Sequence record: SRR20825006_1582
Reading direction: 5' to 3' (one strand)
DNA length: 36,182 nt
Part shown: one piece after another, positions 2,545-30,997 of the stretch
How positions within the stretch are numbered: the stretch's first letter is position 1
Layout of the letters: every line of letters starts with the position of its first letter
Translations under genes and position numbers: made by a program
The notes under the pieces: generated by a model
Databases searched by the model: none
What the model was told of the DNA's origin: nothing
The model's input: the letters and a program-made list of their open reading frames with translations, nothing else

Positions 2545-2707
2545 CGTTCTGTCCAGTTTCAGGGCCGAAATAGGCCGACTCTCGAAATAGTCATTCCAAA
2601 CCGGCTTGTCAGCCGCCCACAGGTGATTATCCTTCACAAACGAAATACCAGAAATCAAACTGGTCTTTTTGCCATCAATGTTTTTCAAGTCTGCGGAGAC
2701 AATATAT

Positions 2708-3721
2708 ATGGGGCTGACCGAAGCAAAAGAAACGGGCGCCGATGCCAGCACGATTGTCCACCAGGCTGAGGCCGCGCTTGAAGACATTCAGAAAATTCGC
2801 TCTGAAGTCTCCAAAGTCATCTACGGTCAGGATGATGTTGTCGAGAATGTACTTCTGGCGATCCTTTCCGGCGGACATGCCCTGCTTGTCGGGGTTCCCG
2901 GCCTTGCCAAAACAAAACTCGTGACAACGCTCGGCACCGTTCTGGGGCTCAATGCCAACCGGATCCAGTTCACTCCCGATCTGATGCCGTCCGATATTCT
3001 CGGTTCGGAAGTCCTTGAAGAAAGCGAGACAGGCCGCCGCTCGTTCCGCTTTATCAAGGGGCCGGTCTTCGCCCAGCTTCTGATGGCTGACGAGATCAAC
3101 CGCGCCTCGCCGCGCACTCAATCGGCCCTGCTGCAGTCAATGCAGGAATATTCGGTTACGATTGCCGGTCAGCACTATGACCTGCCAAAGCCGTTCCATG
3201 TGCTGGCGACCCAGAATCCTCTGGAACAGGAAGGTACCTATCCACTACCAGAAGCGCAGCTTGACCGTTTCTTGCTGGAAGTCGATGTCGGCTATCCCGA
3301 TATTGAGGCCGAGCGGCGCATATTGCTGGAGACCACCGGCGCTGTGGAAGAAAAAGCGAACCCCGTTGTCACATCAGAACGATTGATGGAGATCCAGAGG
3401 CTGATCCGTAAAATGCCGGTCAGTGAAAACGTGGTTGACGCCATTCTGGCACTGGTGCGCGCAGCGCGTCCGGGACAGGGTTTCGAGGATACCGACCGCC
3501 ACGTTTCCTGGGGGCCAGGTCCGCGTGCCGGGCAGGCGCTGATGCTGACAGCCCGCGCGCGTGCACTTTATCAAGGTCGCCTCGCCCCCTCCATTGACGA
3601 TGTTCGTGCGCTTGCAGGCCCGGTTCTGCAACACCGCATGGCACTTAATTTTGCTGCCCGCGCAGAGGGTATCAAACTTGCAGACGTGATTGCCACCATC
3701 GCCACACGCGATCTGAACTGA
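2708..3721 (+). CDS. moxR: MoxR family AAA+ ATPase (CmdA/RL3499-like)
   Basis: Walker A GVPGLAKT, RIQFTPDLMPSDI, Walker B ADEINRA, ATQNPLEQEGTYPLPEAQLDRF; GGAG upstream of ATG 2708. Confidence 0.93.
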   Translation: MGLTEAKETGADASTIVHQAEAALEDIQKIRSEVSKVIYGQDDVVENVLLAILSGGHALLVGVPGLAKTKLVTTLGTVLGLNANRIQFTPDLMPSDILGSEVLEESETGRRSFRFIKGPVFAQLLMADEINRASPRTQSALLQSMQEYSVTIAGQHYDLPKPFHVLATQNPLEQEGTYPLPEAQLDRFLLEVDVGYPDIEAERRILLETTGAVEEKANPVVTSERLMEIQRLIRKMPVSENVVDAILALVRAARPGQGFEDTDRHVSWGPGPRAGQALMLTARARALYQGRLAPSIDDVRALAGPVLQHRMALNFAARAEGIKLADVIATIATRDLN

Positions 3722-3733
3722 CGGATTTTGCCA

Positions 3734-4648
3734 TTGGTTTCAATCGGACAAAACGTTCCCCGCACAACCGGCAATGCTGCACTTTCCCAGGCCAAACACC
3801 GCGCAGCATTGTTGCCCGATTGTCTGGTTGAGGCGCGGCGGATCGCCAACACGGTGACGGCTGGCTGGCATGGGCGCCGACGGCGCGGTCCCGGCGAAAA
3901 TTTCTGGCAGTTCCGGCCTTATGTGAGTGGAGAATCGCTTGCCAGAATCGATTGGCGGCGCTCGGCGCGTGACGATCACACCTATGTACGGGACATGGAA
4001 TGGGAAGCGGCTCATACTGTCTGGCTGTTTGCCGATCTCTCACCATCCATGCGTTTTCAGTCACGTCTTGCGCCGGTGTCAAAGGAATACCGAACGCTCG
4101 TCCTTCTGCTGGCACTTGCCGAAACGCTTTTGCGATCCGGCGAGCGTGTCGGCTATCCAGGACTGATGGAGCCGGTTTCCAGCCGCAATGGTGCCGAAAC
4201 AATGGCCCATATGCTGGCCGCAGCACCTGACAATCTGCCGCAATTGCCGGAAACGGCGATGATGCGGGGGCCTTCAGAACTTGTCATTCTCGGCGATTTT
4301 CTCGATGCGCCGGAAAAACTGTTCAGCAGGATCGCACCGCTTGCAGAACGTGGTCTTACCGCGCATCTGGTTGAAATCGCGGACCCGGCTGAAGAGAGCT
4401 TTCCCTATACCGGACGCACCGCTTTTTCCGATCCTGAAACCGGACAGGAACTGACACTCGGTCGCGCCGAATCCCTGCGTGAGCGTTATCTGGAGCACTA
4501 TCGGGCCAGGCGCCGCGCTATTGCCGAACACGCGGCAAAATCCGGCTGGTCGTTCATCACCCATCATACGGACCGACCCGTTTCAGAAGCACTCACAGCC
4601 GTTCACATGCGGCTTTCCGGCGAAAACGCTTCGGGAGAACAGCGCTGA
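3734..4648 (+). CDS. DUF58 (vWA-like) protein, MoxR partner
   Basis: G-H-RRRRGPGENFWQFRPY, RIDWRRSAR, MIDAS-like DLSPS; start TTG 3734 (3728 also possible); stop overlaps the next ATG. Confidence 0.88.
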   Translation: MVSIGQNVPRTTGNAALSQAKHRAALLPDCLVEARRIANTVTAGWHGRRRRGPGENFWQFRPYVSGESLARIDWRRSARDDHTYVRDMEWEAAHTVWLFADLSPSMRFQSRLAPVSKEYRTLVLLLALAETLLRSGERVGYPGLMEPVSSRNGAETMAHMLAAAPDNLPQLPETAMMRGPSELVILGDFLDAPEKLFSRIAPLAERGLTAHLVEIADPAEESFPYTGRTAFSDPETGQELTLGRAESLRERYLEHYRARRRAIAEHAAKSGWSFITHHTDRPVSEALTAVHMRLSGENASGEQR

Positions 4649-7449
4649 TGGGAGCCATCGCCTTTGCCAATCCGCTGGTGTTGCTGGCGCTTGTCGTACT
4701 GCCCGCAATCTGGTGGCTTTTGAAGCTCACGCCACCACGTCCCAAACGGGAGGTGTTCCCGCCACTTGCCATCCTGCTGAAGCTGACAAAGCGTGATGAA
4801 ACGGCTGCCAAAAGCCCTTGGTGGCTAACCTTGCTACGCATGGTTCTGGCCGCACTGGTTATCTTCGCTATCGCCAATCCGGTTATCAATCCTGACCGCA
4901 CGGAAATTGTTTCCGGCAAACCGCTGGGTCTTATGATCGATAATGGCTGGGCCACTGCAGAAGACTGGGCTGACCGGGCGCGGCAAGCGGAAACCCTCAT
5001 TAACGCCGCAGGGGAAGCCAATCAGCCGGTGATGATGGCCTTTACCGCCGACGCCACGCATTCCGCCGGGCCTGTTTCCGCTGCTCAGGCACGCGAACGC
5101 CTTGCTGCCAACGGCCCGAAAGCACTGAAACCGGAACGCATCGGCGCTGCCGAAGCTTTGGCAGAAGCGTTTGCAGAAAACCCGCCCGGCACTGTAGCGC
5201 TGATGAGCGATGGACTGGCTGCCGAAAATGATGAGGCCGCTTTGAGTCTGCTTGGCAGCTCCCGAGCCGATGATATTGTCGTATCAGAGGCAGAGAACGC
5301 ACCGCCTGCCGCCCTCATCCGTGTTGAAAACGATGCCGATGCCACCCGCATTTTCGCTTCGCGCGCTCAAACAGCGATCACCGACGAAATGATCGTCAAT
5401 GCCTATGACATTGAGGGCCGGACAATTGCCAGTACGCCATTAACGTTTGCCGCCGGGGAAAACAGCGCAACAGCGGAAATCCGTGCGCCCTTTGAGGTTC
5501 GCAATGATTTTGCCCGTATCGCCATTGAGAGTGCGGCAAATGCCGGGGCAGTTCATCTTCTGGATGACGGTTTTCGCCGCAGGCGGGTAGCGCTTGTCAC
5601 CGGTGCGCCGGATAATATGGCACAGCCGCTCCTCACCCCCGCCTATTATCTGGAAAAGGCACTTACCCCCTATGCTGACCTTGTCACCAGCGACGCCGGG
5701 ACATTTGCGGAAAAAATCGACGCTCTGCTGGACAAAAGCCCGTCCGTGCTGATGCTCAGCGATGTTGGAGCAATGCCGGATGAAACTCACGCAACCATCG
5801 AAACATGGGTGAAAAACGGCGGCACACTGATCCGCTTTGCCGGGCCGCGCCTTGCCGCCTCTAAGGGAGATGACAGCCTTTTGCCCGTGCGTCTTCGCTC
5901 CGGTTCCCGTGCCTTTGGCGGTGCCATGAGCTGGTCCACGCCGCAGCCTTTGGCATCGTTTCCGCCAGACAGTCCGTTCTACGGCCTGCCCGCCCCCGAA
6001 GATATTACCGTCACAAGGCAGGTTCTGGCCGAACCCTCGGGTTCCCTTTCGCAGCACACATGGGCCAGCCTTGCCGATGGCACCCCGCTGGTAACCGAAG
6101 CAAGCCTTGGCAACGGGCAACTTGTGCTGTTCCACACGTCATCGGACGCAAACTGGTCGAATCTCCCGATCTCCGGCTATTTCGTCGAAATGTTGCGACG
6201 GGTCGTCAATCTTTCACGCGCAAGCACCATAACTGACGACGAAAGCGGCAACGTAACTCTCCTGCCGCCCTATCGCCTGCTCGACGCAAACGGCGTTCTC
6301 TCCTCCGATACCAGCGGCGCGAAGCCGCTTGCTGAACGCAGGGACACAACCGACACAGCGGATTTTGAACACCCGCCCGGCCTTTACGGTTCGGCGGACG
6401 GTTTTATCGCGCTCAACCTTTTTGGCCCGGACGATCAGCTGGCACCATTTGATACGTCCGCCCTTGGCACCGGCGCACGGCTGCAACCGCTCGGCCAGAC
6501 CGCAGCGCTGGACCTCAAACCCTGGCTTCTGGCGGCAGCCATGCTGCTTATAATTGCTGACGGGATCATCATTCTGCTCATGAATGGAGCGCTTTCCCGT
6601 TTTCGTCCGCGCCGCCATATCGTACCTGCGATCCTGATTGCGGCTCTTGCAGCATTGTCTCTGTTATTTTCAACCGCTCCCCCTGCCAGGGCTCAGATGA
6701 GTGACAGTGAGATCGCCGACCTGCTTTATGAAACGCATCTGGCCTATGTAGAAACCGGCGAGGCAGACGTTGACCGGATTTCCGAGCGTGGTCTCAAGGG
6801 GCTTTCAAACTACATTGCCTACCGAACCGCACTGGAGCCGGGCGACCCAATCGGCGTTGACCCGGCGACCGATGAACTTGCCTTTTATCCGCTGGTCTAC
6901 TGGCCGGTTTCTGCGTCGGCGCCAATGCCATCGCAGGAAGCCATAGCGAAAATCGAGGCCTATATGCGCAATGGCGGAACCGTGTTGTTTGATACGCGCG
7001 ATGAGTTCTCGCCACTTGGAAGTGGCGCCGCCAACGCCAATACCCAACGCCTGCGTGCAATTCTCGGCAATATCGACGTGCCTCCGCTGGAGCCTGTTCC
7101 CGAAGGACATGTTCTGACCCGCTCGTTTTATCTGCTGTCGGATTTTCCCGGACGCTATGATGGTTCTCCACTGTGGGTGGAGGCACGAACTGGCAGCGAC
7201 GATACCCCGGCGCTGCAAATGAGCGGCGGTGACGGCGTTTCTCCGATCATCATCACCGGCAATGATTTTGCAGGCGCATGGGCAATCAACGCGGACAGCA
7301 CACCGATGCTGCCGACTGTTCCCGAGAATCCACGCCAGCGACAGCTTGCCTACCGCACCGGCGTCAACATCGTGATGTATATGCTGACCGGCAACTACAA
7401 GGCAGATCAGGTGCATATTCCCGCGCTGCTGGAAAGGCTGGGGCAATAA
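4648..7449 (+). CDS. Large membrane protein: N-terminal BatA-like double-TM region, degenerate vWA, GATase-like and C-terminal DUF4159 domains
   Basis: F-NP..LL-L..LP-IWWLL..PP-P....FP BatA-type N-terminus; C-terminal LAFYPLVYWP, YMRNGGTVLFD, GVNIVMYMLTGNYKADQVH. Confidence 0.85.
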   Translation: MGAIAFANPLVLLALVVLPAIWWLLKLTPPRPKREVFPPLAILLKLTKRDETAAKSPWWLTLLRMVLAALVIFAIANPVINPDRTEIVSGKPLGLMIDNGWATAEDWADRARQAETLINAAGEANQPVMMAFTADATHSAGPVSAAQARERLAANGPKALKPERIGAAEALAEAFAENPPGTVALMSDGLAAENDEAALSLLGSSRADDIVVSEAENAPPAALIRVENDADATRIFASRAQTAITDEMIVNAYDIEGRTIASTPLTFAAGENSATAEIRAPFEVRNDFARIAIESAANAGAVHLLDDGFRRRRVALVTGAPDNMAQPLLTPAYYLEKALTPYADLVTSDAGTFAEKIDALLDKSPSVLMLSDVGAMPDETHATIETWVKNGGTLIRFAGPRLAASKGDDSLLPVRLRSGSRAFGGAMSWSTPQPLASFPPDSPFYGLPAPEDITVTRQVLAEPSGSLSQHTWASLADGTPLVTEASLGNGQLVLFHTSSDANWSNLPISGYFVEMLRRVVNLSRASTITDDESGNVTLLPPYRLLDANGVLSSDTSGAKPLAERRDTTDTADFEHPPGLYGSADGFIALNLFGPDDQLAPFDTSALGTGARLQPLGQTAALDLKPWLLAAAMLLIIADGIIILLMNGALSRFRPRRHIVPAILIAALAALSLLFSTAPPARAQMSDSEIADLLYETHLAYVETGEADVDRISERGLKGLSNYIAYRTALEPGDPIGVDPATDELAFYPLVYWPVSASAPMPSQEAIAKIEAYMRNGGTVLFDTRDEFSPLGSGAANANTQRLRAILGNIDVPPLEPVPEGHVLTRSFYLLSDFPGRYDGSPLWVEARTGSDDTPALQMSGGDGVSPIIITGNDFAGAWAINADSTPMLPTVPENPRQRQLAYRTGVNIVMYMLTGNYKADQVHIPALLERLGQ

Positions 7450-9521
7450 TGGATATCAGCTTTGCACCACTTCTGCCGCTCTGGGTAATCTACGGCTCGC
7501 TCATTGCAGTGGCAGCTTTGATGATCATCGGCTACGCGGCGCATATGCGGGCCACAACATTGCGCGCCATTGCAGGCCTGCTGCTGGTCGCAGCAATCGC
7601 AAACCCCACGATCAGCCGGGAGGAGCGTGCGCCATTGTCTACCATTGTTCCGGTAATCGTTGATCGCAGCCAAAGCCAGTTGACCGGCGAACGCACAAGC
7701 CAGACCGATGAAGCGCTTGCAGCCCTTGAAGCACGGTTTGCCGACGAACCAATGATTGAGCCCCGCATTGTTGATGTGCAAACCGCGAATGAGAATGGAA
7801 GGGCAGAGACCAGAGGTTTTGCTGCGCTGAACGACGCAGTACGTGATGTCCCGCCAAGCCGCCTGGGCGCGGCTTTCTTCATTACCGATGGCCAGATCCA
7901 CGACATTCCCGAAAATGCGGCAGGCCTGCCCGCACCGGTTCCGCTCAATGCCATCATCACCGGCAGTGAAGACGAATTTGATCGGCGCATAGAAATCACC
8001 GAGGCACCGCGCTTCGCACTTGTCGGCGAAGGTTTGCCGGTTGCATTTACGGTTATCAATGATGGCCCGGTTCCCGGAGGCAATGCGCCCGTCACCGTAA
8101 CCGCTCGGCTGAATGGTGAAATCATTGCACAAACGCAGGTGACGCCCGGAACAACAAACACATTCCGGTTCGAGATTGAAAACGGTGGCGAAAACATCAT
8201 TGCGCTTTCCGTTGAGCCGATATCAGGCGAACTGACGGAGATGAACAACCGCGCAATCCAGATCGTTGAAGGCATCCGCGAAAACCTGCGCGTGCTTCTG
8301 GTTTCCGGTTCCCCCCACAATGGCGAGCGCACATGGCGCAATCTTCTGAAATCTGACGCCTCGGTTGATCTGGTGCATTTCACTATTTTGAGACCGCCGG
8401 AAAAGCAGGACGGAACACCGATCAACGAATTGTCGCTGATCGCGTTTCCCACACGCGAACTGTTTGTCGAGAAAATCAACGATTTCGACCTGATCATTCT
8501 GGACAGGTACCAGAATCGCGGCGTGCTGCCGCTGCTCTACTACGACAACATTGCGCAATATGTGACCAATGGCGGTGCGCTTCTGGTCGCCGCCGGTCCG
8601 GAAATTGCCGGGGCGGAATCCATTGCCAGCACACCGCTTTCCGCCGTTTTGCCAGCCCTTCCGACCGGCAATATTTCCGAAGGCGGTTTTCTCCCGCAGG
8701 TCTCTGAAACCGGCGCAAAGCACCCGGTCACCCGTGATCTGCCGGGCAGTGAACAAACCCCGCCGGATTGGGGCCGTTGGTTCCGCTCGATTGATGTTTC
8801 CGGTGTTGACGGTGAAACAGTTATGACAGCCAATAACGCACCGCTTCTGGTACTTTCGCGTAAAGGCGAAGGCCGGGTTGCCGAGTTTTTGTCCGATCAG
8901 GGCTGGCTCTGGGCGCGCGGCTTTGAGGGTGGTGGGCCATATGTTCCGCTTTACAGGCGCATTGCTCACTGGTTGATGAAGCAGCCGGCGCTTGAAGAAG
9001 AAGCCCTGCGCGCAAGCACTGCCGGTCAGACCATCGACATCATCCGCCAAACCATGGGGGGCGCTCCACCCGATGCGACGGTTCGCACACCGTCCGGTCA
9101 AACACTTTCCGTAGCGCTGCAAGAGGTCGAGCCCGGCTTGTTTCGCGGCACCGCCGAAGTCGATGAGATGGGGCTGTTCACGATTGAAAACGGCGGATTG
9201 GAACGGCTGATTAATGTCGGTGATCCGAATGCGCCAGAATTCAAGGCTATGATTTCCACGACCGAGACACTGGCACCGCTTGCAGGCCAGACCAATGGCA
9301 TGGTTGCCCGAATGAATGAAGTAACCGGGCGTGTTTTACCGCCGATCCGCGTGGCAGATGGACCGCTGCGCACCGGCAACAACGGCATGATGCCAATTGT
9401 TGCGACGACTGACAGCGAGCTTCAGAGTATCCGCTCGATACCATTGTTCAACGGGTTTCTGGCCATTTTTGTGTTGCTGGCGATAATCTCTTCAGCCTGG
9501 TGGCGCGAAGGTCGCTCCTGA
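7449..9521 (+). CDS. Conserved membrane protein with vWA-like and class I glutamine amidotransferase-like domains
   Basis: N- and C-terminal TM helices, DRSQS and ITDG, RVLLVSG-PH-GERTWRNLLKSD; ATG 7449 overlaps the upstream TAA (TAATG). Confidence 0.85.
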   Translation: MDISFAPLLPLWVIYGSLIAVAALMIIGYAAHMRATTLRAIAGLLLVAAIANPTISREERAPLSTIVPVIVDRSQSQLTGERTSQTDEALAALEARFADEPMIEPRIVDVQTANENGRAETRGFAALNDAVRDVPPSRLGAAFFITDGQIHDIPENAAGLPAPVPLNAIITGSEDEFDRRIEITEAPRFALVGEGLPVAFTVINDGPVPGGNAPVTVTARLNGEIIAQTQVTPGTTNTFRFEIENGGENIIALSVEPISGELTEMNNRAIQIVEGIRENLRVLLVSGSPHNGERTWRNLLKSDASVDLVHFTILRPPEKQDGTPINELSLIAFPTRELFVEKINDFDLIILDRYQNRGVLPLLYYDNIAQYVTNGGALLVAAGPEIAGAESIASTPLSAVLPALPTGNISEGGFLPQVSETGAKHPVTRDLPGSEQTPPDWGRWFRSIDVSGVDGETVMTANNAPLLVLSRKGEGRVAEFLSDQGWLWARGFEGGGPYVPLYRRIAHWLMKQPALEEEALRASTAGQTIDIIRQTMGGAPPDATVRTPSGQTLSVALQEVEPGLFRGTAEVDEMGLFTIENGGLERLINVGDPNAPEFKAMISTTETLAPLAGQTNGMVARMNEVTGRVLPPIRVADGPLRTGNNGMMPIVATTDSELQSIRSIPLFNGFLAIFVLLAIISSAWWREGRS

Positions 9522-10030: not shown

Positions 10031-10105
10031 GTTTTCAGAACCTGTAAGCGAGGACGCAAAGAGCTTGCCCGGACACCACAGCCTGCCCGGCTTCATATCT
10101 CAAAC

Positions 10106-10129
10106 TCAGCGTCGTCGGAGGGTCCGCAT
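10106..10129 (-). CDS. Putative Arg-rich leader peptide MRTLRRR upstream of the GNAT
   Basis: ATG CGG ACC CTC CGA CGA CGC TGA between a sigma70-like promoter and the GNAT start; only a weak GGA SD; in-frame TTG at 10147. Confidence 0.4.
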   Translation of the reverse strand: MRTLRRR

Positions 10130-10158
10130 AACAAATCCAAATTTCAAAGTGGAAATGG

Positions 10159-10187
10159 CAGTAGCAGGAAAAATAAAGGCCGTCCAG
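10159..10187 (-). promoter_or_regulatory. Putative sigma70 promoter for the leader-GNAT transcript
   Basis: CTGGAC-N17-CTACTG versus the rhizobial consensus CTTGAC-N17-CTATAT. Confidence 0.45.
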
Positions 10188-13933: not shown

Positions 13934-15640
13934 TCAGGCCTGTTCTTCAATGATCTGGTTAGCCGCCGATACAATCGCTTCCAGTGATGCGGCAACGATA
14001 TTGGTGTTGATGCCGACACCGAACATGCGCCCACCTTCATAGGACACTTCCACATAGGCAATCGCCTTTGCATCAGACCCATGGTAGAGTGAGTGTTCTG
14101 AATAGTCCTCAACCGTGATCTTTGTTCCCAGGTAAGCCGACAGGGCATTTGTAAACCCGTCGACAGGCCCGTTACCGTTGGCTTCGAGACGCTTCTTTTC
14201 ACCATTATCGGTAATCTCGGCCCCCACAACGCGAATACCCTTCGTGTCGCCCTGCGGATAGGTGTGGTGATCGAGAAACTTGATGCGGCCATCAGGCTGG
14301 TCGACATAGTGGTCCATGAAGGCTTCATGGATACGCCTGGACGGCAATTCCCGCCCTTCATCATCAGTGATCTTCTGGATGTACTCGCGGAATGCCACCT
14401 GCAGGCCACGCGGCATGTTGATACCGTAGTCGCTTTGCATGATGTAGGCGAGGCCGCCCTTGCCCGACTGCGAGTTGATGCGGATGATCGCCTCATACGT
14501 GCGGCCCACATCCTGCGGGTCGATCGGCAGATACGGCACTTCCCAGACAGGTTTGTTCGCAACCTTGATCGCTTTCATACCCTTGTTGATCGCATCCTGG
14601 TGTGAGCCGGAGAAGGCCGTGTAAACCAGCTCCCCGACGTAAGGATGCCGCTCCGGGATCACCATCTGGTTGGAATATTCATAAACCGCCTTCATGCGCT
14701 CGATATCAGAGCAGTCCAGTTCCGGGTCCACGCCTTGCGTGAACATATTCAGCGCCAGTGTAACGATATCGACATTGCCGGTGCGCTCGCCGTTGCCGAA
14801 CAGCGTGCCTTCAATGCGGTCGGCCCCAGCCATAACACCCATTTCAGCAGCGGCAATACCCGTGCCCCGGTCATTATGCGGATGCACCGAAATGATCAGA
14901 TTTTCCCGATTGTCGAGGTTACGGCACATCCACTCAATCTGGTCGGCATAGATGTTCGGCGTCGACATTTCAACCGTAGATGGCAGGTTGATAATCAGCT
15001 TGTTATCCGCCGTCGGCTTCATTTCTTCGATGACGGCGTTGCAGATCTCCAGCGCCACGTCCAGTTCCGTACCGGTAAAGCTTTCCGGCGAATACTGAAA
15101 GCGATAGCCGCCTCCGGCCTTTTCGGCCATATCCGTGATCATCTTGGCTGCATCAACCGCTATTTGCTTGATACCGGCAACATCCTTGCCAAACACCACA
15201 CGACGCTGAAGCTCGCTGGTAGAATTGTAGAAATGCACGATCGGGCGTCTTGAACCCTTCAGCGATTCAAATGTTCTGGTAATCAGCTCCGGTCGGCACT
15301 GCACCAGCACCTGCAGGGAAACATCATCTCCAACCTGATCGTTTTCAACGCACCAGCGGGCAAAGTCGAAATCTGTTTGCGATGCAGACGGAAAACCAAT
15401 CTCGATTTCCTTGAAGCCCATGTCCAGCAACAGCTGGAACATGCGCGCCTTGCGGTCATGCCCCATCGGGTCAACCAGTGCCTGGTTGCCGTCACGCAGA
15501 TCAACCGAACACCAGATCGGTGCCTTTTCGATGCGCTTCGACGGCCATTGCCGATCTGTCAGGTTAATTTGCTGGTAGGGCTGATATTTCGTGCCTGCAA
15601 TCGGCATACCCTTGACGTTCTGGGAGTTATTCGCGTCCAT
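13934..15640 (-). CDS. leuA: 2-isopropylmalate synthase (yeast/LeuA type 2)
   Basis: WCSVDLRDGNQAL, YSPESF, LPSTVE, HPHNDRG, GNGERTGN, HQDAI; GAGGAAGAG SD before ATG 15640. Confidence 0.96.
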   Translation of the reverse strand: MDANNSQNVKGMPIAGTKYQPYQQINLTDRQWPSKRIEKAPIWCSVDLRDGNQALVDPMGHDRKARMFQLLLDMGFKEIEIGFPSASQTDFDFARWCVENDQVGDDVSLQVLVQCRPELITRTFESLKGSRRPIVHFYNSTSELQRRVVFGKDVAGIKQIAVDAAKMITDMAEKAGGGYRFQYSPESFTGTELDVALEICNAVIEEMKPTADNKLIINLPSTVEMSTPNIYADQIEWMCRNLDNRENLIISVHPHNDRGTGIAAAEMGVMAGADRIEGTLFGNGERTGNVDIVTLALNMFTQGVDPELDCSDIERMKAVYEYSNQMVIPERHPYVGELVYTAFSGSHQDAINKGMKAIKVANKPVWEVPYLPIDPQDVGRTYEAIIRINSQSGKGGLAYIMQSDYGINMPRGLQVAFREYIQKITDDEGRELPSRRIHEAFMDHYVDQPDGRIKFLDHHTYPQGDTKGIRVVGAEITDNGEKKRLEANGNGPVDGFTNALSAYLGTKITVEDYSEHSLYHGSDAKAIAYVEVSYEGGRMFGVGINTNIVAASLEAIVSAANQIIEEQA

Positions 15641-15737
15641 TATCTCTTCCTCGGCGGCCCGCATGAAAATCACGATCATCCTATTGAAGACGACGTGCGG
15701 CAGAGCCTTATAGTCTTGTTCAGGTTATTCAGGGGTG

Positions 15738-15800
15738 AAGGAGCGATTGCGCCGAACGGCTTTACGGCCGCCGGGCGCTCCTTAAAGGACCCGGCAACCG
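15738..15800 (-). promoter_or_regulatory. Structured leuA leader RNA (predicted pseudoknot or alternative helices)
   Basis: CGGTTGCCGGG (15800-15790) pairs with CCCGGCGGCCG (15775-15765); loop AAGGAGCG (15783-15776) pairs with CGCTCCTT (15745-15738). Confidence 0.65.
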
Positions 15801-15907
15801 CTTTTAAGGCCGAGGAGAAGAAGCGAGTTTAGCGAAGACGCAGCAACAGGCCGCGCAGCAAAGGCGCGTGCATCTGTCTTGATCGTGTATTCAGCCAAAC
15901 GTGTCAT
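15782..15907 (-). CDS. leuA leader peptide (41 aa, MTRLAEY...NSLLLLGLKSGCRVL)
   Basis: Four consecutive Leu codons (CTT CTT CTC CTC) just before the structured element; GTTGAT-N17-TTAAAG promoter ends 8 nt before the ATG. Confidence 0.65.
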   Translation of the reverse strand: MTRLAEYTIKTDARAFAARPVAASSLNSLLLLGLKSGCRVL

Positions 15908-15915
15908 GGCATTCG

Positions 15916-15944
15916 CTTTAAAGCCATTCAGCGTATGAATCAAC
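15916..15944 (-). promoter_or_regulatory. Putative sigma70 promoter of the leuA leader
   Basis: GTTGAT-N17-TTAAAG. Confidence 0.4.
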
Positions 15945-19038: not shown

Positions 19039-21246
19039 TTACCCTGCCGCCCGTTTGCCCGCAGCAGGGGCATCACCGGAGCCGATAAGTTTGCCAATCA
19101 CATTTTCGATAATCCGCATACCGGCATCACCGCCAAGCGTCATAATCGATTCGGGATGAAACTGGACCGCGCCGACCGGCTCGCTGACATGCTCGATCCC
19201 CATGACGATCCCGTCATCAGTCTCGGCAGAAATCATAAACTCCGATGGCAGTTCCACAGCATCGGCAAAGATCGAATGATACCGGCCAACAGTGATCTCC
19301 TGCGGCAGTCCGTCAAACAGGCGACCATGCTCCAGAATGCGGATGCGCGAAGGCTTGCCATGCATCGGAACCGCCAGTTGCCTGAGCGTGCCGCCATAGG
19401 CTTCCGCCAGTGCCTGAAGGCCAAGGCAGACGCCGAAAATCGGCAACCCGCGTTTGCGTGCCTGCTGAATGGTTGTCTTGCAATCAAAATCCTTCGGCAT
19501 ACCCGGCCCCGGCGAAAGCACGACGAGATCAGGTGATACCCGTTTAAAGGTTTCATCCGACACCGGCGAACGCACGGTTGCAACCTCCGCACCTGTCTGG
19601 CGGAAATAATTCGCCAGCGTGTGCACGAAACTGTCCTCGTGATCGACCAGCAGGATTTTTACCCCGGCACCGAGCCGGGAGACCTGGCGTGCCGCAGGCT
19701 GAAGTTTTGCCGCATCCGCCTCGCGGATTGCCGCCAGCATGGCTGAAGCTTTCAATTCTGTTTCCGCCTCTTCTTCCTGCGGGTTTGAATCATAAAGCAG
19801 CGTGGCTCCGGCGCGCACCTCGGCAACGCCCTCCTTCACGCGGATCGTTCTGAGCGTCAGCCCGGTATTCATATCACCGTTGAAGCCGATCATGCCAATA
19901 GCACCACCATACCAGGCCCGTGGGCTTTTTTCATGATTCTCGATAAAACGCATCGCCCAGAGCTTCGGCGCCCCGGTGACAGTCACAGCCCAGGCATGGC
20001 TCAAAAACGCATCGAAAGCATCCATATCCGGGCGAAGACGGCCTTCGATATGATCAACGGTATGGATCAGGCGCGAATACATCTCGATCTGCCGGCGGCC
20101 AATGACCTTGACCGACCCCGGCTCGCAGACCCGGCTCTTGTCATTGCGGTCGACATCGGAACACATCGTCAGTTCGGACTCATCCTTTTGCGAGTTCAGC
20201 AGTTTGAGAATCTGCTCGCTGTCTGCAATCGGATCTTCACCACGCTTGATCGTTCCGGAAATCGGACAGGTCTCGACCCTGCGCCCGGTCACGCGGACGA
20301 ACATTTCCGGCGATGCGCCAATCAGATATTCCTGATTGCCCAGATTGATGAAGAAGGAATAAGGCGACGGATTGGTCGCTTTCAACCGTTTGGAAATCGC
20401 CGACGGCTTCGTCGCGCACCGCTCCATGAATTTCTGGCCCGGCACGGCTTCAAAGAGATCCCCCCGTACAAAGCTTTCCTTGGCTTTCATCACCAGTTCG
20501 GCATATTCACCGGGCTTGTGATCACTCTTCGGCGGCACGCGGTCAGACGCCTTGAACGGTTCAGGCGCAATATCTCCCGCCTTGCCTTCAGTCGTTAGAC
20601 CATCACGAGCGAAATCATAGCGGTCAATCCAGGCTTCAGCAGCATGGTTGTCAACCATCAGCACTTCGTCCGGCAGGTAAAGCAGCATGTCGCGCTGATC
20701 GTCAGGACGCTTCAGCTTCAGGTTCACCGCATCAAACTGGAAGGCAAGATCGTAACCGAACGCACCGTAAAGCCCGAGACTGGCATCGACGTCGGAGTAA
20801 AACAGATCGACAATAGCGCGCAGAACCGTGAAAACCGTCGGAGCCTTGGATCGCTCCTCTTCGGTGAACTGACGGTGCGGCTCGTCAACCTTGAGATCGA
20901 TGCGGTCTGCCGTCTTCGCAACGATTGAGACCTCTTCCAGATTTTCCAGAACCGGCAGAATGAACGATAGCAGAACCTCACCGCGCTCGTTGAACGCTTC
21001 CAGCCACATGGTCCGGCCATGACATGAAATACCCACTGGCGGATCAATGACCGCCGTGTCCCAGCGCGTATAGCGGCCCGGATACTCATAGTTGGAAGAA
21101 AAAACCGCACCGCGGCGTTCGTCCAGCCGGTCAATGTAGCTGGAAACGGAATCGTCATAGGGCACATAACGTCGCGTTCGCGTGATTGCGATACCGCCTC
21201 TGGTTTTATACTGCTCCCCGTCCCCGGACCGTTCATGAAGGCTCAT
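19039..21246 (-). CDS. trpE: Anthranilate synthase, fused TrpE(G)
   Basis: Chorismate-binding domain ([24 protein letters not shown]) fused to a GATase domain (SPGPG, GVCLG, QFHPES). Confidence 0.96.
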
Positions 21247-21343
21247 TTGAACTCTGCTCCACCGTCGTCATATGCAAGCCCGATTTCTGAAGCGGTCTTG
21301 CGCCTTTGGTTTCCTTGCCCTGAAATCAGGCGGCCCTCATAAC

Positions 21344-21373
21344 AAAAAAGCCGCCTCAGACTTCGGGCGGCTT
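21344..21373 (-). terminator. trp attenuator terminator
   Basis: AAGCCGCC...GGCGGCTT stem followed by a T-run, between trpL and trpE(G). Confidence 0.85.
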
Positions 21374-21410
21374 CATAGGATCAGAAAAACATACGTGATC
21401 GCGGCCGCCG

Positions 21411-21455
21411 TTAGCGAACCCACCACCACTTTGCAATGTTCTTAATTCTGATCAT
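21411..21455 (-). CDS. trpL: trp leader peptide MIRIKNIAKWWWVR
   Basis: 14-aa uORF with TGG TGG TGG, followed by GGCGGC (able to pair with the terminator 5' arm GCCGCC) and the terminator. Confidence 0.93.
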   Translation of the reverse strand: MIRIKNIAKWWWVR

Positions 21456-28446: not shown

Positions 28447-29688
28447 ATGTCGTCTGCCATTTCTCCGCTCGCGCCCAAATCATTTACCCCCATGCCGGCC
28501 ATAGACGGCGTTCGCCTTGCAACAGCTGCTGCTGGCATCAAATACAAGGGCCGCACAGACGTCATGATGATGATCTTTGACGGCGATGCCAATGTTGCCG
28601 GGCTTTTCACAAAATCCAAATGCCCCTCTGCACCGGTCGATTTCTGCCGTGCCAACCTTGATAACGGAAGCGCGCGCGTTCTGATCTGCAATTCCGGCAA
28701 TGCAAATGCTTTCACCGGCAAGAAGGGCGCCGAAGCAACCGCTATGACCGCGCGCAGTGCCGCCAAAGCGGCAGGATGTGATACCGGCGATGTCTTTCTG
28801 GCCTCCACCGGCGTGATCGGAGAGCCACTCGATGCCTCGAAATTCGACGGTGTGCTGGCCGGTATGGCGCGTGATGCACGCCCCGATGCGTGGCTTGCCG
28901 CAGCCAAGGCAATCATGACGACCGACACCTATCCAAAGGTTGCCACCCGTGGTGCAACCATCGACGGCGTATCCGTGACCCTGAATGGCATGGCCAAGGG
29001 GGCGGGCATGATTGCGCCGGATATGGCAACCATGCTGTCGTTCATTGCCACGGATGCCGCTATTTCCGCGCAGGCTCTTCAGGATATTCTGTCAGAAGGT
29101 GTCGGCGGCAGCTTCAACGCCATTACCGTCGACAGCGACACCTCAACATCCGATACCGTACTCGCCTTTGCCACCGGCAAGGCCGCGAATTTCGGCCAGG
29201 AGCCTGTTACCGCCGCCAGCGATCCGCGTCTCGATGATTTCAAGGCGGCTCTTCACGCGCTGATGACCGATCTGGCACTTCAGATCGTTCGCGACGGCGA
29301 AGGCGCACGCAAAATGGTAAGGGTCCATGTGACCGGTGCTGAAAACGATCGTGCAGCAGACCGGATTGCCCGTTCGATCGCCAATTCTCCGCTGGTCAAA
29401 ACCGCCGTAGCCGGTGAAGATGCCAATTGGGGACGTGTCGTCATGGCCGTCGGCAAGGCCGGCGAAAAGGCAGACCGTGACCGGCTGGCGATCTGGTTCG
29501 GCGATATCCGTGTCGCCGTCAACGGTGAACGTGATCCGGATTACTCCGAGGAACATGCTTCGATCGTGATGCGGGAAGATGAAATCACCATCCGTGCCGA
29601 TATCGGGCTCGGTGACGGGCAGGCAACGATCTACACCTGTGATCTGACGAAGGAATATGTTGCAATCAACGGCGATTACCGCAGTTGA
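28447..29688 (+). CDS. argJ: Bifunctional ornithine acetyltransferase / N-acetylglutamate synthase
   Basis: [36 protein letters not shown] autocleavage site, RDGEG, INGDYRS. Confidence 0.97.
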
Positions 29689-29822: not shown

Positions 29823-30587
29823 GTGAGCACAGATCTACCACTTGTGCGCCGGCTGGAAGCCATGGCGTTGCGCGCATGGCCTGCCCGGGACGTTCACTAT
29901 GACGGTGCATGGCAGTTGCGCCTCACAGCCGGACATCCATCAAAACGCCTCAACAGCATCACCGTGCTGGACCGTTCGGACATTTCGGATATCGAAATCC
30001 GATTCGAGAAAGCCGCCCGCCGCTACGCTGCATTCGGGAGGCCGGTAACGCTGCGCGAAACGCCACTGACACCGCCGGCGCTTATGGAGTTTCTCAGAGC
30101 GAACGAGGCGACGGCGTTTGATGAAACCATCGTCATGACACTGAACCTGGCAAGCTTTGAACCACACAACGCAATTGAACGCCTGCCGAGCCAGGATGTC
30201 GGCCGGTTCGTGGAGGTTTCTCTGGCATTAAACCCCAGCGAGGGTCTGACCAAGGCCGGGCTGGCTGAGGTGGTGACAGCCATCAAACCGGTCCACGGTT
30301 TCTTTATCAGCCAGACGGACGACGACGTTCCGCTGGCAGCCGGGCTTTGTGTGCATGATTTTGATATGGCAGGCATAGAAGCGCTGGCTGTTGCCGCCAA
30401 TGTGCGGCGTGCAGGCCATGGCCGCAGCCTCACCGGCAGTATGTTGCGATGGGCAAAGACAAGAGGTGCCGGAACCGCATGGTTGCAGGTTGTCGCCGAG
30501 AACGAAGCGGCCCTTCGTCTATATGAGGACTTCGGTTTTACGGAGGCCTACCGTTATCGCTATTGGCGACAGAAGGTCAGAACATGA
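29823..30587 (+). CDS. GNAT N-acetyltransferase
   Basis: RAWPA, SKRLNS, RRAGHGR, WLQV..ENEAALRLY..FGF..AYRYRY; GTG start. Confidence 0.85.
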   Translation: MSTDLPLVRRLEAMALRAWPARDVHYDGAWQLRLTAGHPSKRLNSITVLDRSDISDIEIRFEKAARRYAAFGRPVTLRETPLTPPALMEFLRANEATAFDETIVMTLNLASFEPHNAIERLPSQDVGRFVEVSLALNPSEGLTKAGLAEVVTAIKPVHGFFISQTDDDVPLAAGLCVHDFDMAGIEALAVAANVRRAGHGRSLTGSMLRWAKTRGAGTAWLQVVAENEAALRLYEDFGFTEAYRYRYWRQKVRT

Positions 30588-30997
30588 CAGACAAGAATTT
30601 CAAAATCCTGCTGGTCGCAGCCTGTGCGCTGATTGACAGCGATGGCCGCATTCTTCTGGCACAGCGCCCGGAAGGTAAGGCGCTCGCCGGCCTTTGGGAG
30701 TTTCCTGGCGGCAAGGTGGAAGCCGGAGAAACACCGGAAGCCTGCCTGATCCGCGAACTGGACGAAGAACTCGGCGTGACCACCAAAGCAGCCTGCCTTG
30801 CTCCGCTCACCTTTGCCAGCCACACTTATGATGATTTTCACCTGCTGATGCCACTTTATGTCTGCCGCCGGTTTGAGGGTATACCGCAAGGCCGTGAAGG
30901 ACAGGCGATCAAATGGACCTATGCCCGTAATCTGCGCGACTTTCCCATGCCACCGGCAGACGAACCGCTGATCCCGATCCTTCAGGATCTGCTGTGA
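30584..30997 (+). CDS. mutT: 8-oxo-dGTP diphosphatase
   Basis: Nudix box WEFPGGKVEAGETPEACLIRELDEELG; ATG 30584 overlaps the upstream TGA. Confidence 0.9.
   Translation: MTDKNFKILLVAACALIDSDGRILLAQRPEGKALAGLWEFPGGKVEAGETPEACLIRELDEELGVTTKAACLAPLTFASHTYDDFHLLMPLYVCRRFEGIPQGREGQAIKWTYARNLRDFPMPPADEPLIPILQDLL

Follow-up and report, generated by a model that had tools for sequence, protein, structure and literature searches.

A conserved leader reading frame with tandem CGA codons, probably read by ribosomes, upstream of a YhbS-like acetyltransferase gene

Results

Organization of the locus

The DNA analysed here, SRR20825006_1582, is a stretch of 36,182 nt (the window) that carries on its minus strand a gene for a YhbS-like GNAT N-acetyltransferase (hereafter GNAT). 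The gene is preceded by a promoter-like element, a leader open reading frame (ORF) of seven codons that ends in a run of three arginine codons (RRR), and a hairpin (Table 1). The leader ORF, with four Arg codons in all, is present at 10129-10106, where the original prediction for this DNA had placed it, and all the features which that prediction named fall inside the gap between the GNAT and the divergent glutathione transferase gene. Leader ORFs with the same Arg run recur upstream of orthologous GNAT genes in Martelella's order, and the element is probably a conserved, undescribed control element read by ribosomes and not a chance ORF.

Table 1. Features of the leader and its flanking genes, listed in the direction of GNAT transcription and followed by the divergent gene.
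Feature	Position in the window	Strand	Remarks
Promoter-like CTGGAC-N17-CTACTG	10159..10187	minus	-35 at 10187-10182, -10 at 10164-10159
Leader ORF, ATG CGG ACC CTC CGA CGA CGC TGA = MRTLRRR*, 7 codons	10106..10129	minus	Direct reading
Tandem Arg codons CGA-CGA-CGC = CGACGACGC, invariant core CGACGACG	10109..10117	minus	Exact 8-mer in 75/98 loci
Hairpin CCGGGCA/UGUCCGG, 7 bp, 8-nt loop	10069..10090	minus	-12.1 kcal/mol alone; competing local fold -15.5
GCGTCCTCG, proposed partner of the Arg codons	10049..10057	minus	8/9 complementary to CGACGACGC; unproven
GNAT translation-initiation region, weak Shine-Dalgarno-like ACAGG	10031..10048	minus	Directly before the ATG at 10030-10028
YhbS-like GNAT N-acetyltransferase gene, 165 aa	9533..10030	minus	Downstream of the leader; Pfam PF00583 Acetyltransf_1 and PF13508 Acetyltransf_7
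YqjG-type glutathione transferase gene	start 10314		Divergent from GNAT; intergenic gap 283 nt

The GNAT is matched in Pfam by generic acetyltransferase families alone, and its sources name it just 'GNAT family' or 'YhbS'. It shares 27% identity over 135 aa with Escherichia coli YhbS (BLASTP, E 8e-12), its closest database protein, from Martelella mediterranea, is 89% identical, and a homologue is present in 193 of the 201 genomes sampled from Martelella's order. The alignments of the homologues start from the residue encoded by the ATG given in Table 1, and three of the four Martelella relatives (L001, L002, and L004) lack the other in-frame ATG, which in the window lies at 10096.

Conservation and forms of the leader ORF

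DNA around GNAT homologues was initially taken from one genome per species, and the sample was then widened to the whole order. A first set consists of 78 loci (the window, L001-L008, and L067-L135), in each of which the 310 nt upstream of the GNAT gene served as the search zone, and a second set consists of 20 further loci of the same order with more distant GNATs. The exact 8-mer CGACGACG is found upstream of the GNAT in 63 of the 78 loci of the first set, the window included, as compared with 0.04 occurrences expected per 310-nt region from the same-strand background of the locus flanks (15 matches in 113,066 nt). In the second set, the 8-mer is present in 12 of the 20 loci and a short ORF with CGA-CGA in 14, which brings the 8-mer to 75 of 98 loci in total. 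Comparing the regions upstream of orthologous GNATs, as the original prediction had suggested, finds the RRR ORF conserved.

The leader ORF occurs in a short and a long form. Short orthologous ORFs, represented by MRILRRR*, MLNLRRR*, MLLNLRRR*, and MFISRNPRRR*, all ending in CGA CGA CGC TGA, are found in Martelella and in Rhizobium-type loci, and one design, with the promoter-like pair, the short RRR ORF, and a hairpin that differs in sequence but not in position, is shared by four Martelella and three Rhizobium-type loci. The commoner form has 22-35 codons, typically M-x6-RRR followed by 10-25 further codons, as in MAWAFEQRRRSLRRGFSSRARVVAA and MSLTANLRRRQMRRGFQPPIAVRLLACRNR. Common to all forms are the start, a handful of variable codons, and the Arg run, while the remaining peptide drifts. 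Because most loci continue for 10-25 codons past the Arg run and through the hairpin, the Martelella heptapeptide is best read as a truncated variant and not as the ancestral design. Among the 15 exceptions of the first set, some carry MLFIRR*, MLVLRR*, ..IRRL*, or a five-Arg run ending in CGA-CGA.

Those of the homologue loci L012-L035 that were long enough to analyse (labelled Sphingomonadaceae, Erythrobacter-type, Rhodobacteraceae, or Paracoccaceae, along with several unclassified metagenome-assembled genomes) contain no such ORF upstream of their GNAT. The pattern was also sought elsewhere in the genomes, with the 12-mer CGACGACGCTGA in five of them and with ATG-N18-CGACGACGA in five others. 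Copies at other positions are not followed by a GNAT gene, the 17 other genomic matches being judged by their ORF context alone. As a GNAT follows the pattern solely at the GNAT leaders in these five plus five genomes, a regulon motif was rejected.

Sixty-four loci were used for the statistics given below, and their choice required the exact 8-mer. The promoter-like element, which lies 129 nt upstream of the GNAT ATG in the window and so agrees with the distance of about 130 nt in the original prediction, keeps its core in related loci: TGGAC and TTCCTGCTA are unchanged across seven aligned leaders, four from Martelella and three of the Rhizobium type. In addition, the -10-like word TGCTA is present in 34 of the 64 leaders and in 4 of 64 background stretches. 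A generic sigma-70 scan of the window did not flag the CTGGAC-N17-CTACTG element.

Codon identity in the Arg run

The third Arg codon, which is free of the locus selection, is CGA in 51 of the 64 loci, CGC in 10, CGT in 2, and CGG in 1. CGA accounts for 7% of the Arg codons in a set of 25 long ORFs from the window and is the rarest CGN codon there, and none of their 50 adjacent Arg-Arg pairs is CGA-CGA. Among the exceptions that lack the 8-mer, no RRR ORF is written entirely in common codons. Since the third codon is mostly CGA and common-codon RRR is absent from the exceptions, selection is indicated to act on the nucleotides themselves, beyond arginine identity alone. CGA is decoded slowly, and the conservation of such rare codons fits an input provided by the speed of the ribosome at the RRR run.

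Signs of translation

An in-frame ATG at most 75 nt before the 8-mer, with no intervening stop codon, is found in 58 of the 64 loci, as compared with 1 and 9 of the 64 for the two other frames, and in 25 loci it lies exactly 21 nt upstream of the anchor. Shine-Dalgarno (SD) words are enriched before these starts: the 4-nt core is seen in 24% and a word of at least 3 nt in 81%, while control ATG triplets have them in 6% and 29%, respectively. The ORF length is stable inside clades while the sequence changes (32/32/32, 28/28, 25/25, and 22/22 residues). Because the frame, the start codon, the SD-like words, and the ORF length are all conserved, the evidence that the leader ORF is translated and tied to the GNAT is strong, if indirect.

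The same observations bear on a different explanation, in which GCGACGACGA and the hairpin form an untranslated nucleic-acid motif, bound at the RNA or DNA level by a protein or a small RNA, and the reading frame is incidental. A core that is invariant in nucleotides within a variable peptide, with a covarying hairpin adjoining it, is what such a motif would produce. It would not, in turn, account for the bias toward one frame and start, for the preferred 21-nt distance of the ATG, for the SD-like enrichment, or for the clade-stable ORF lengths, and no Rfam family matches it. We therefore regard an untranslated motif as quite unlikely and favor a translated leader.

Structure of the leader RNA

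The zone from +6 to +50 after the Arg codons has a mean folding z-score of -1.07, with 47% of the loci below -1 (n = 64), as compared with +0.15 for the 45-nt control zone before the Arg run and -0.30 for the next one downstream. When 44 long forms were aligned with MAFFT, a helix of 7 bp was seen to begin 8-9 nt past the third Arg codon. The cells of this helix are paired in 64.5% of cases, where shuffles give 56.1 ± 1.7 (0 of 500) and slid controls 25-46%, and the covariation score amounts to 0.250 against 0.138 (0 of 500 shuffles), with 36 double-change cells against 18.5. Within clades, the hairpin arms covary via synonymous positions, as in GTGGCT/AGCCAC, GCGGCT/AGCCGC, and GGGGC/GCCCC. 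The hairpin of the window aligns with CCGGAGA/TCTCCGG and CGGGGC/GCCTCG of its Martelella relatives. These statistics are supportive and not proof, because the columns were picked by hand from the same MAFFT alignment, which favors them, and the sequences are related; RNAalifold run on that alignment yielded no consensus pairs. A covariance model built from the 44 long forms (R1) holds 0.48 bits per position and is too weak for mapping the distribution of the element: it matches 2 of 151 genomes of the class, once at another GNAT leader and once without an adjacent GNAT.

The long forms also raise the possibility of a functional Arg-rich micropeptide that is made together with the GNAT and acts in trans, as its partner, substrate, or regulator. 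The patterns RRR-x2-3-R-G-F-x-P and RRR-x3-4-R-D-x2-S-R recur among the peptides, and trans-acting leader peptides are known in the same order, an example being peTrpL (PMC7298713). However, the recurring patterns fall on the two arms of the hairpin, in which a synonymous change on one side is made good on the other. The length ranges from 7 to ~40 residues, and Martelella, Rhizobium sp., and other loci do without the part that follows RRR. A preference for CGA over the common Arg codons would not be expected if the peptide alone mattered, and no family of Pfam or NCBIfam matches the leader peptides. Taken together, these features make a trans-acting peptide very unlikely as the reason for the conservation.

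The original prediction assigned the Arg codons to an RNA switch, in which they pair with GCGTCCTCG just upstream of the GNAT initiation region while CGGAC (10126-10122) pairs with GTCCG (10074-10070) across them. The complementarities exist as described, 8/9 and 5/5, respectively, and the former helix is part of the minimum free energy (MFE) fold of the window leader; the switch itself, however, did not hold up, as it remains at the level of shuffles over the 64 loci. The whole leader fold of the window has a z of -1.0, and 32 of 200 shuffles fold as well. The predicted pairing probability of the Arg-codon arm is 0.66, against 0.59 in shuffles. MFE folds had also suggested a stem, conserved among loci, that joins the Arg codons to an CGUCGUCG-like arm farther downstream; it was withdrawn, being no better than dinucleotide shuffles.

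The same prediction had noted the lack of a U-rich terminator, with which two scans agree. A tool scan found no intrinsic terminator, and our own scan (loops of 3-12 nt) found a hairpin followed by a T-run in 8 of the 64 leaders, where 6.5 are expected from shuffles, and recovered the terminator of the trp leader of the window as a positive control. A classical transcription attenuator was rejected on this basis. A frameshift site was rejected as well: depending on the locus, the GNAT ATG lies in any of the three phases relative to RRR, so that there is no conserved fusion frame.

An arginine-biosynthetic role for the GNAT

An Arg run in a leader ORF would also be expected of an arginine-starvation leader, provided that the GNAT is a cryptic N-acetylglutamate synthase (NAGS), the missing first arginine enzyme in genomes with ArgJ only. 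Indeed, ArgJ is present in 5 of 5 related genomes, in which classical ArgA and the short mycobacterial-type NAGS are each found over the cut-off in 0 of 5, and new GNAT-only types of NAGS are reported from Corynebacterium (PMC3827942). The GNAT itself does not support this assignment: its score with NF005921 is 11.1 bits against a cut-off of 180, TIGR01890 gives no listed match, no NAGS is found among the solved-structure matches, and other GNATs of those genomes match the NAGS models better. The genomic setting is also unfavorable, as ArgJ may be bifunctional, the leaders show no terminator/antiterminator design (8/64 vs 6.5 expected, as above), and the GNAT of the window lies ~18 kb from argJ, outside any arg operon. 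A cryptic NAGS under arginine control is thus improbable.

In the window, argJ (28447-29685, plus strand) is followed by an unrelated second GNAT with an Rv0428c_C-like domain (29823-30584) and by a NUDIX gene (30584-30994), whose start coincides with the end of the second GNAT at 30584; this cluster lies ~18 kb from the leader.

Leader ORF and GNAT initiation

In most loci, 44-100 nt separate the stop of the leader ORF from the GNAT ATG. Folding predicts pairing between the initiation regions of the GNAT and the leader ORF (the latter at -33 to -5 from the Arg run) with a value of 0.35, against 0.23 in shuffles (36 of 59 loci), as compared with 0.03-0.16 for the predicted pairing of the GNAT initiation region with the Arg codons and 0.04 with the post-RRR hairpin. 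With a ribosome footprint placed over the Arg codons, the predicted accessibility of GNAT initiation changes from 0.36 to 0.40, rising in 22 and falling in 5 of the 64 loci.

The leader ORF might merely load ribosomes, by leader unfolding or by reinitiation, onto a GNAT gene with a weak SD at a set level and with no sensing involved. The 4-nt SD core is present at just 3% of the GNAT starts of the sampled loci, against the 24% given above for the leader ORF starts, the spacer is short, and reinitiation at leader genes has reportedly been proposed as a general effect (PMC4833913). The conserved tandem of rare CGA codons, the hairpin, and the drifting rest of the ORF would all be left unexplained by ribosome loading, which we hold to be highly unlikely as the sole function.

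Several minor observations concern the GNAT start. In 14 of 64 spacers (e.g., in L068, L081, and L103), ACCGGA or TCCGGA stands 10-20 nt ahead of the GNAT ATG, as compared with 0 of 64 background stretches that contain the word; a weak SD context is one possible reading, a site of its own another. Many database entries of the GNAT have 181-191 aa, as compared with ~166 aa. In the Rhizobium-type loci L005, L006, and L067, an ATG in the GNAT frame overlaps the stop of the leader ORF (TGATG), and the frame is open through to the GNAT. The longer entries are probably mis-started inside the leader, the other possibility being a coupled alternative start. At one locus (L110), where the RRR run is missing, a 10-codon ORF, MHFLPHRQRP*, has one CGA and ends in a TGA that overlaps the GNAT ATG (ATGA), an arrangement that suggests direct translational coupling in that lineage.

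Discussion

A candidate pause sensor in cis

We propose that the translated leader ORF, with its slow CGA codons, is a pause sensor that acts in cis to control the YhbS-like GNAT, and we give this reading a probability of about 0.6. The conserved promoter would start an mRNA whose first reading frame is the short leader ORF, with two or three CGA codons, followed by the hairpin, as its invariant part. Ribosomes would decode the CGA run slowly, with a dwell time set by the supply of the charged arginine tRNA that reads CGA or by general translation stress, and where the ribosome stands on the leader would set the amount of GNAT. Two output steps are considered the most likely: (i) a ribosome on the leader may free the GNAT initiation region from its pairing with the 5' leader, or (ii) the progress of the ribosome may tune Rho-dependent polarity or decay over the 44-100-nt spacer. 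Our confidence is moderate for a translated, pause-sensing leader and low for any specific output step.

A more specific version of the proposal is that the CGA-CGA-CGA run is a dedicated sensor of inosine-wobble capacity, that is, of the charging or the A34-to-I editing of the CGA-reading tRNA, with the GNAT as the effector. We consider this version rather doubtful; if true, bacteria would be using for regulation the slow CGA-CGA pair that is known from yeast.

A number of points weigh against a pause sensor. We infer the start of transcription, the translation, and the pausing, and all the statistics count related loci as independent. The 8-mer is missing from 23 of the 98 loci, seven of which keep a short ORF with CGA-CGA, and ~7 of the 15 exceptions of the first set show no comparable ORF upstream of the GNAT. 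Because the 64 loci were picked by the 8-mer, the first two CGA codons are partly fixed, and the case for codon identity therefore has three supports: the frequency of 75 in 98 loci, the third codon, and the lack of common-codon RRR among the exceptions. The predicted effects on GNAT initiation are small and vary from locus to locus, the individual values running from 0.79 down to about 0. With regard to polarity, C exceeds G in 52 of the 64 spacers; since the GNAT coding start is equally skewed, the composition of the spacer gives no specific support to a rut site, and a Rho site assigned by composition was rejected as unspecific.

The longest helix between the Arg-codon arm and the downstream sequence averages 4.81 bp, against 4.77 in dinucleotide shuffles (Watson-Crick pairs, 64 loci), and 5.56 against 5.49 bp when G-U pairs are allowed. 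As the complementarity equals that of the shuffles, pairing does not explain the conserved CGA codons, and what remains is either the identity of a slowly decoded codon or a binder that recognizes the sequence. The latter option is kept alive by codon -1, whose last letter is G in 52 of the 64 loci and which hints at a nucleotide motif, GCGACGACGA, readable by a non-ribosomal binder.

Relation to known leader systems

Amino acid-sensing leader ORFs are textbook cases for Trp, His, Leu, Thr, and Phe, while arginine-sensing ones are, to our knowledge, rare and poorly documented. Like the trpL and hisL attenuators, the element described here is a short translated leader with tandem codons for one amino acid directly before a gene. 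It differs from them in having neither a terminator nor above-chance pairing of the regulatory codons, and its downstream gene is not a recognized gene of arginine synthesis.

The ermC- and cat-type leaders confer drug-inducible translation attenuation by a short leader ORF and a hairpin before a gene for a modifying enzyme, and the same succession of leader ORF, hairpin, and modifying enzyme is seen here. In the GNAT leaders, in contrast, sequestration of the ribosome-binding site (RBS) by the hairpin is not evident (predicted post-RRR pairing of 0.04), and the GNAT is near-universal in the order and not an accessory resistance gene. In yeast, CGA-CGA pairs are inhibitory through inosine wobble and represent a general translational liability that is handled by quality control. 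Adjacent CGA codons as a site of slow decoding are common to both cases, whereas what is proposed here is a conserved regulatory device in bacteria.

The closest parallel with arginine codons that we compared is orf34 (SpeFL) of Salmonella speF, in which two consecutive Arg codons are present and the progress of the ribosome is reported to set Rho-dependent termination, RBS unfolding, and mRNA decay (PMC6386406). The GNAT leaders resemble it in having a short upstream ORF (uORF) with consecutive Arg codons and no intrinsic terminator route. They differ in the downstream gene, which encodes a GNAT and not ornithine decarboxylase, in the order of the host, and in having no Rfam match. Moreover, the rare codon CGA itself is conserved here, usually three times, and a peptide domain for ornithine sensing is not evident, as judged without a peptide alignment.

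As for the downstream gene, YhbS of E. coli is reported to be HqbA, a regulator that binds Hfq (PMC10710024). The GNAT is its distant homologue, as judged by the 27% identity, but E. coli yhbS overlaps ubiT in an operon-like arrangement and leaves no room for such a leader.

Rfam gave no match in the window (E up to 10) or in eight related loci (E up to 1), and no description of the leader ORF was found in the literature, so that its standing as an undescribed element, as put forward in the original prediction, is upheld by the searches of Rfam, Pfam, NCBIfam, and publications. The main texts of the S. meliloti Ribo-seq and uRBS papers mention no acetyltransferase uORF; their supplements (PMC10117765 and PMC13285730) are partly searchable and may contain a record of the short ORF. 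We also found no report of a leader in which one particular rare codon is conserved in tandem. We rate the leader ORF as a member of the known leader-ORF regulators, with conserved tandem rare CGA codons as its new feature. If confirmed, it would serve as a compact model, spread over a whole order, of how codon-specific ribosome pausing feeds into regulation in Alphaproteobacteria; the rhizobia belong to this order, as do many genera from the environment. A first hold on the regulation of a GNAT that is present in nearly all the sampled genomes would be gained as well.

Other features of the window

A Bat-like cluster on the plus strand (2678-9521) encodes a MoxR AAA ATPase, a DUF58 protein, a BatA/DUF4159 protein, and a membrane protein of 747 aa. 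Its end is convergent with the GNAT gene and lies 12 nt from the GNAT stop.

Two further sets of small ORFs precede biosynthetic genes on the minus strand. The trp leader, whose terminator served as the control above, consists of the ORF MIRIKNIAKWWWVR* (21411-21455) upstream of a fused trpE(G) gene (19042-21246). Its terminator, at ~21343-21378, is formed by the hairpin GAAGCCGCC...GGCGGCTT followed by a T-run. Before leuA (13937-15679), small ORFs with Leu runs are found at 15782-15927, namely MHAPLLRGLLLRLR* and a 41-codon ORF that contains SLLLLGL, and these may represent a leu leader.

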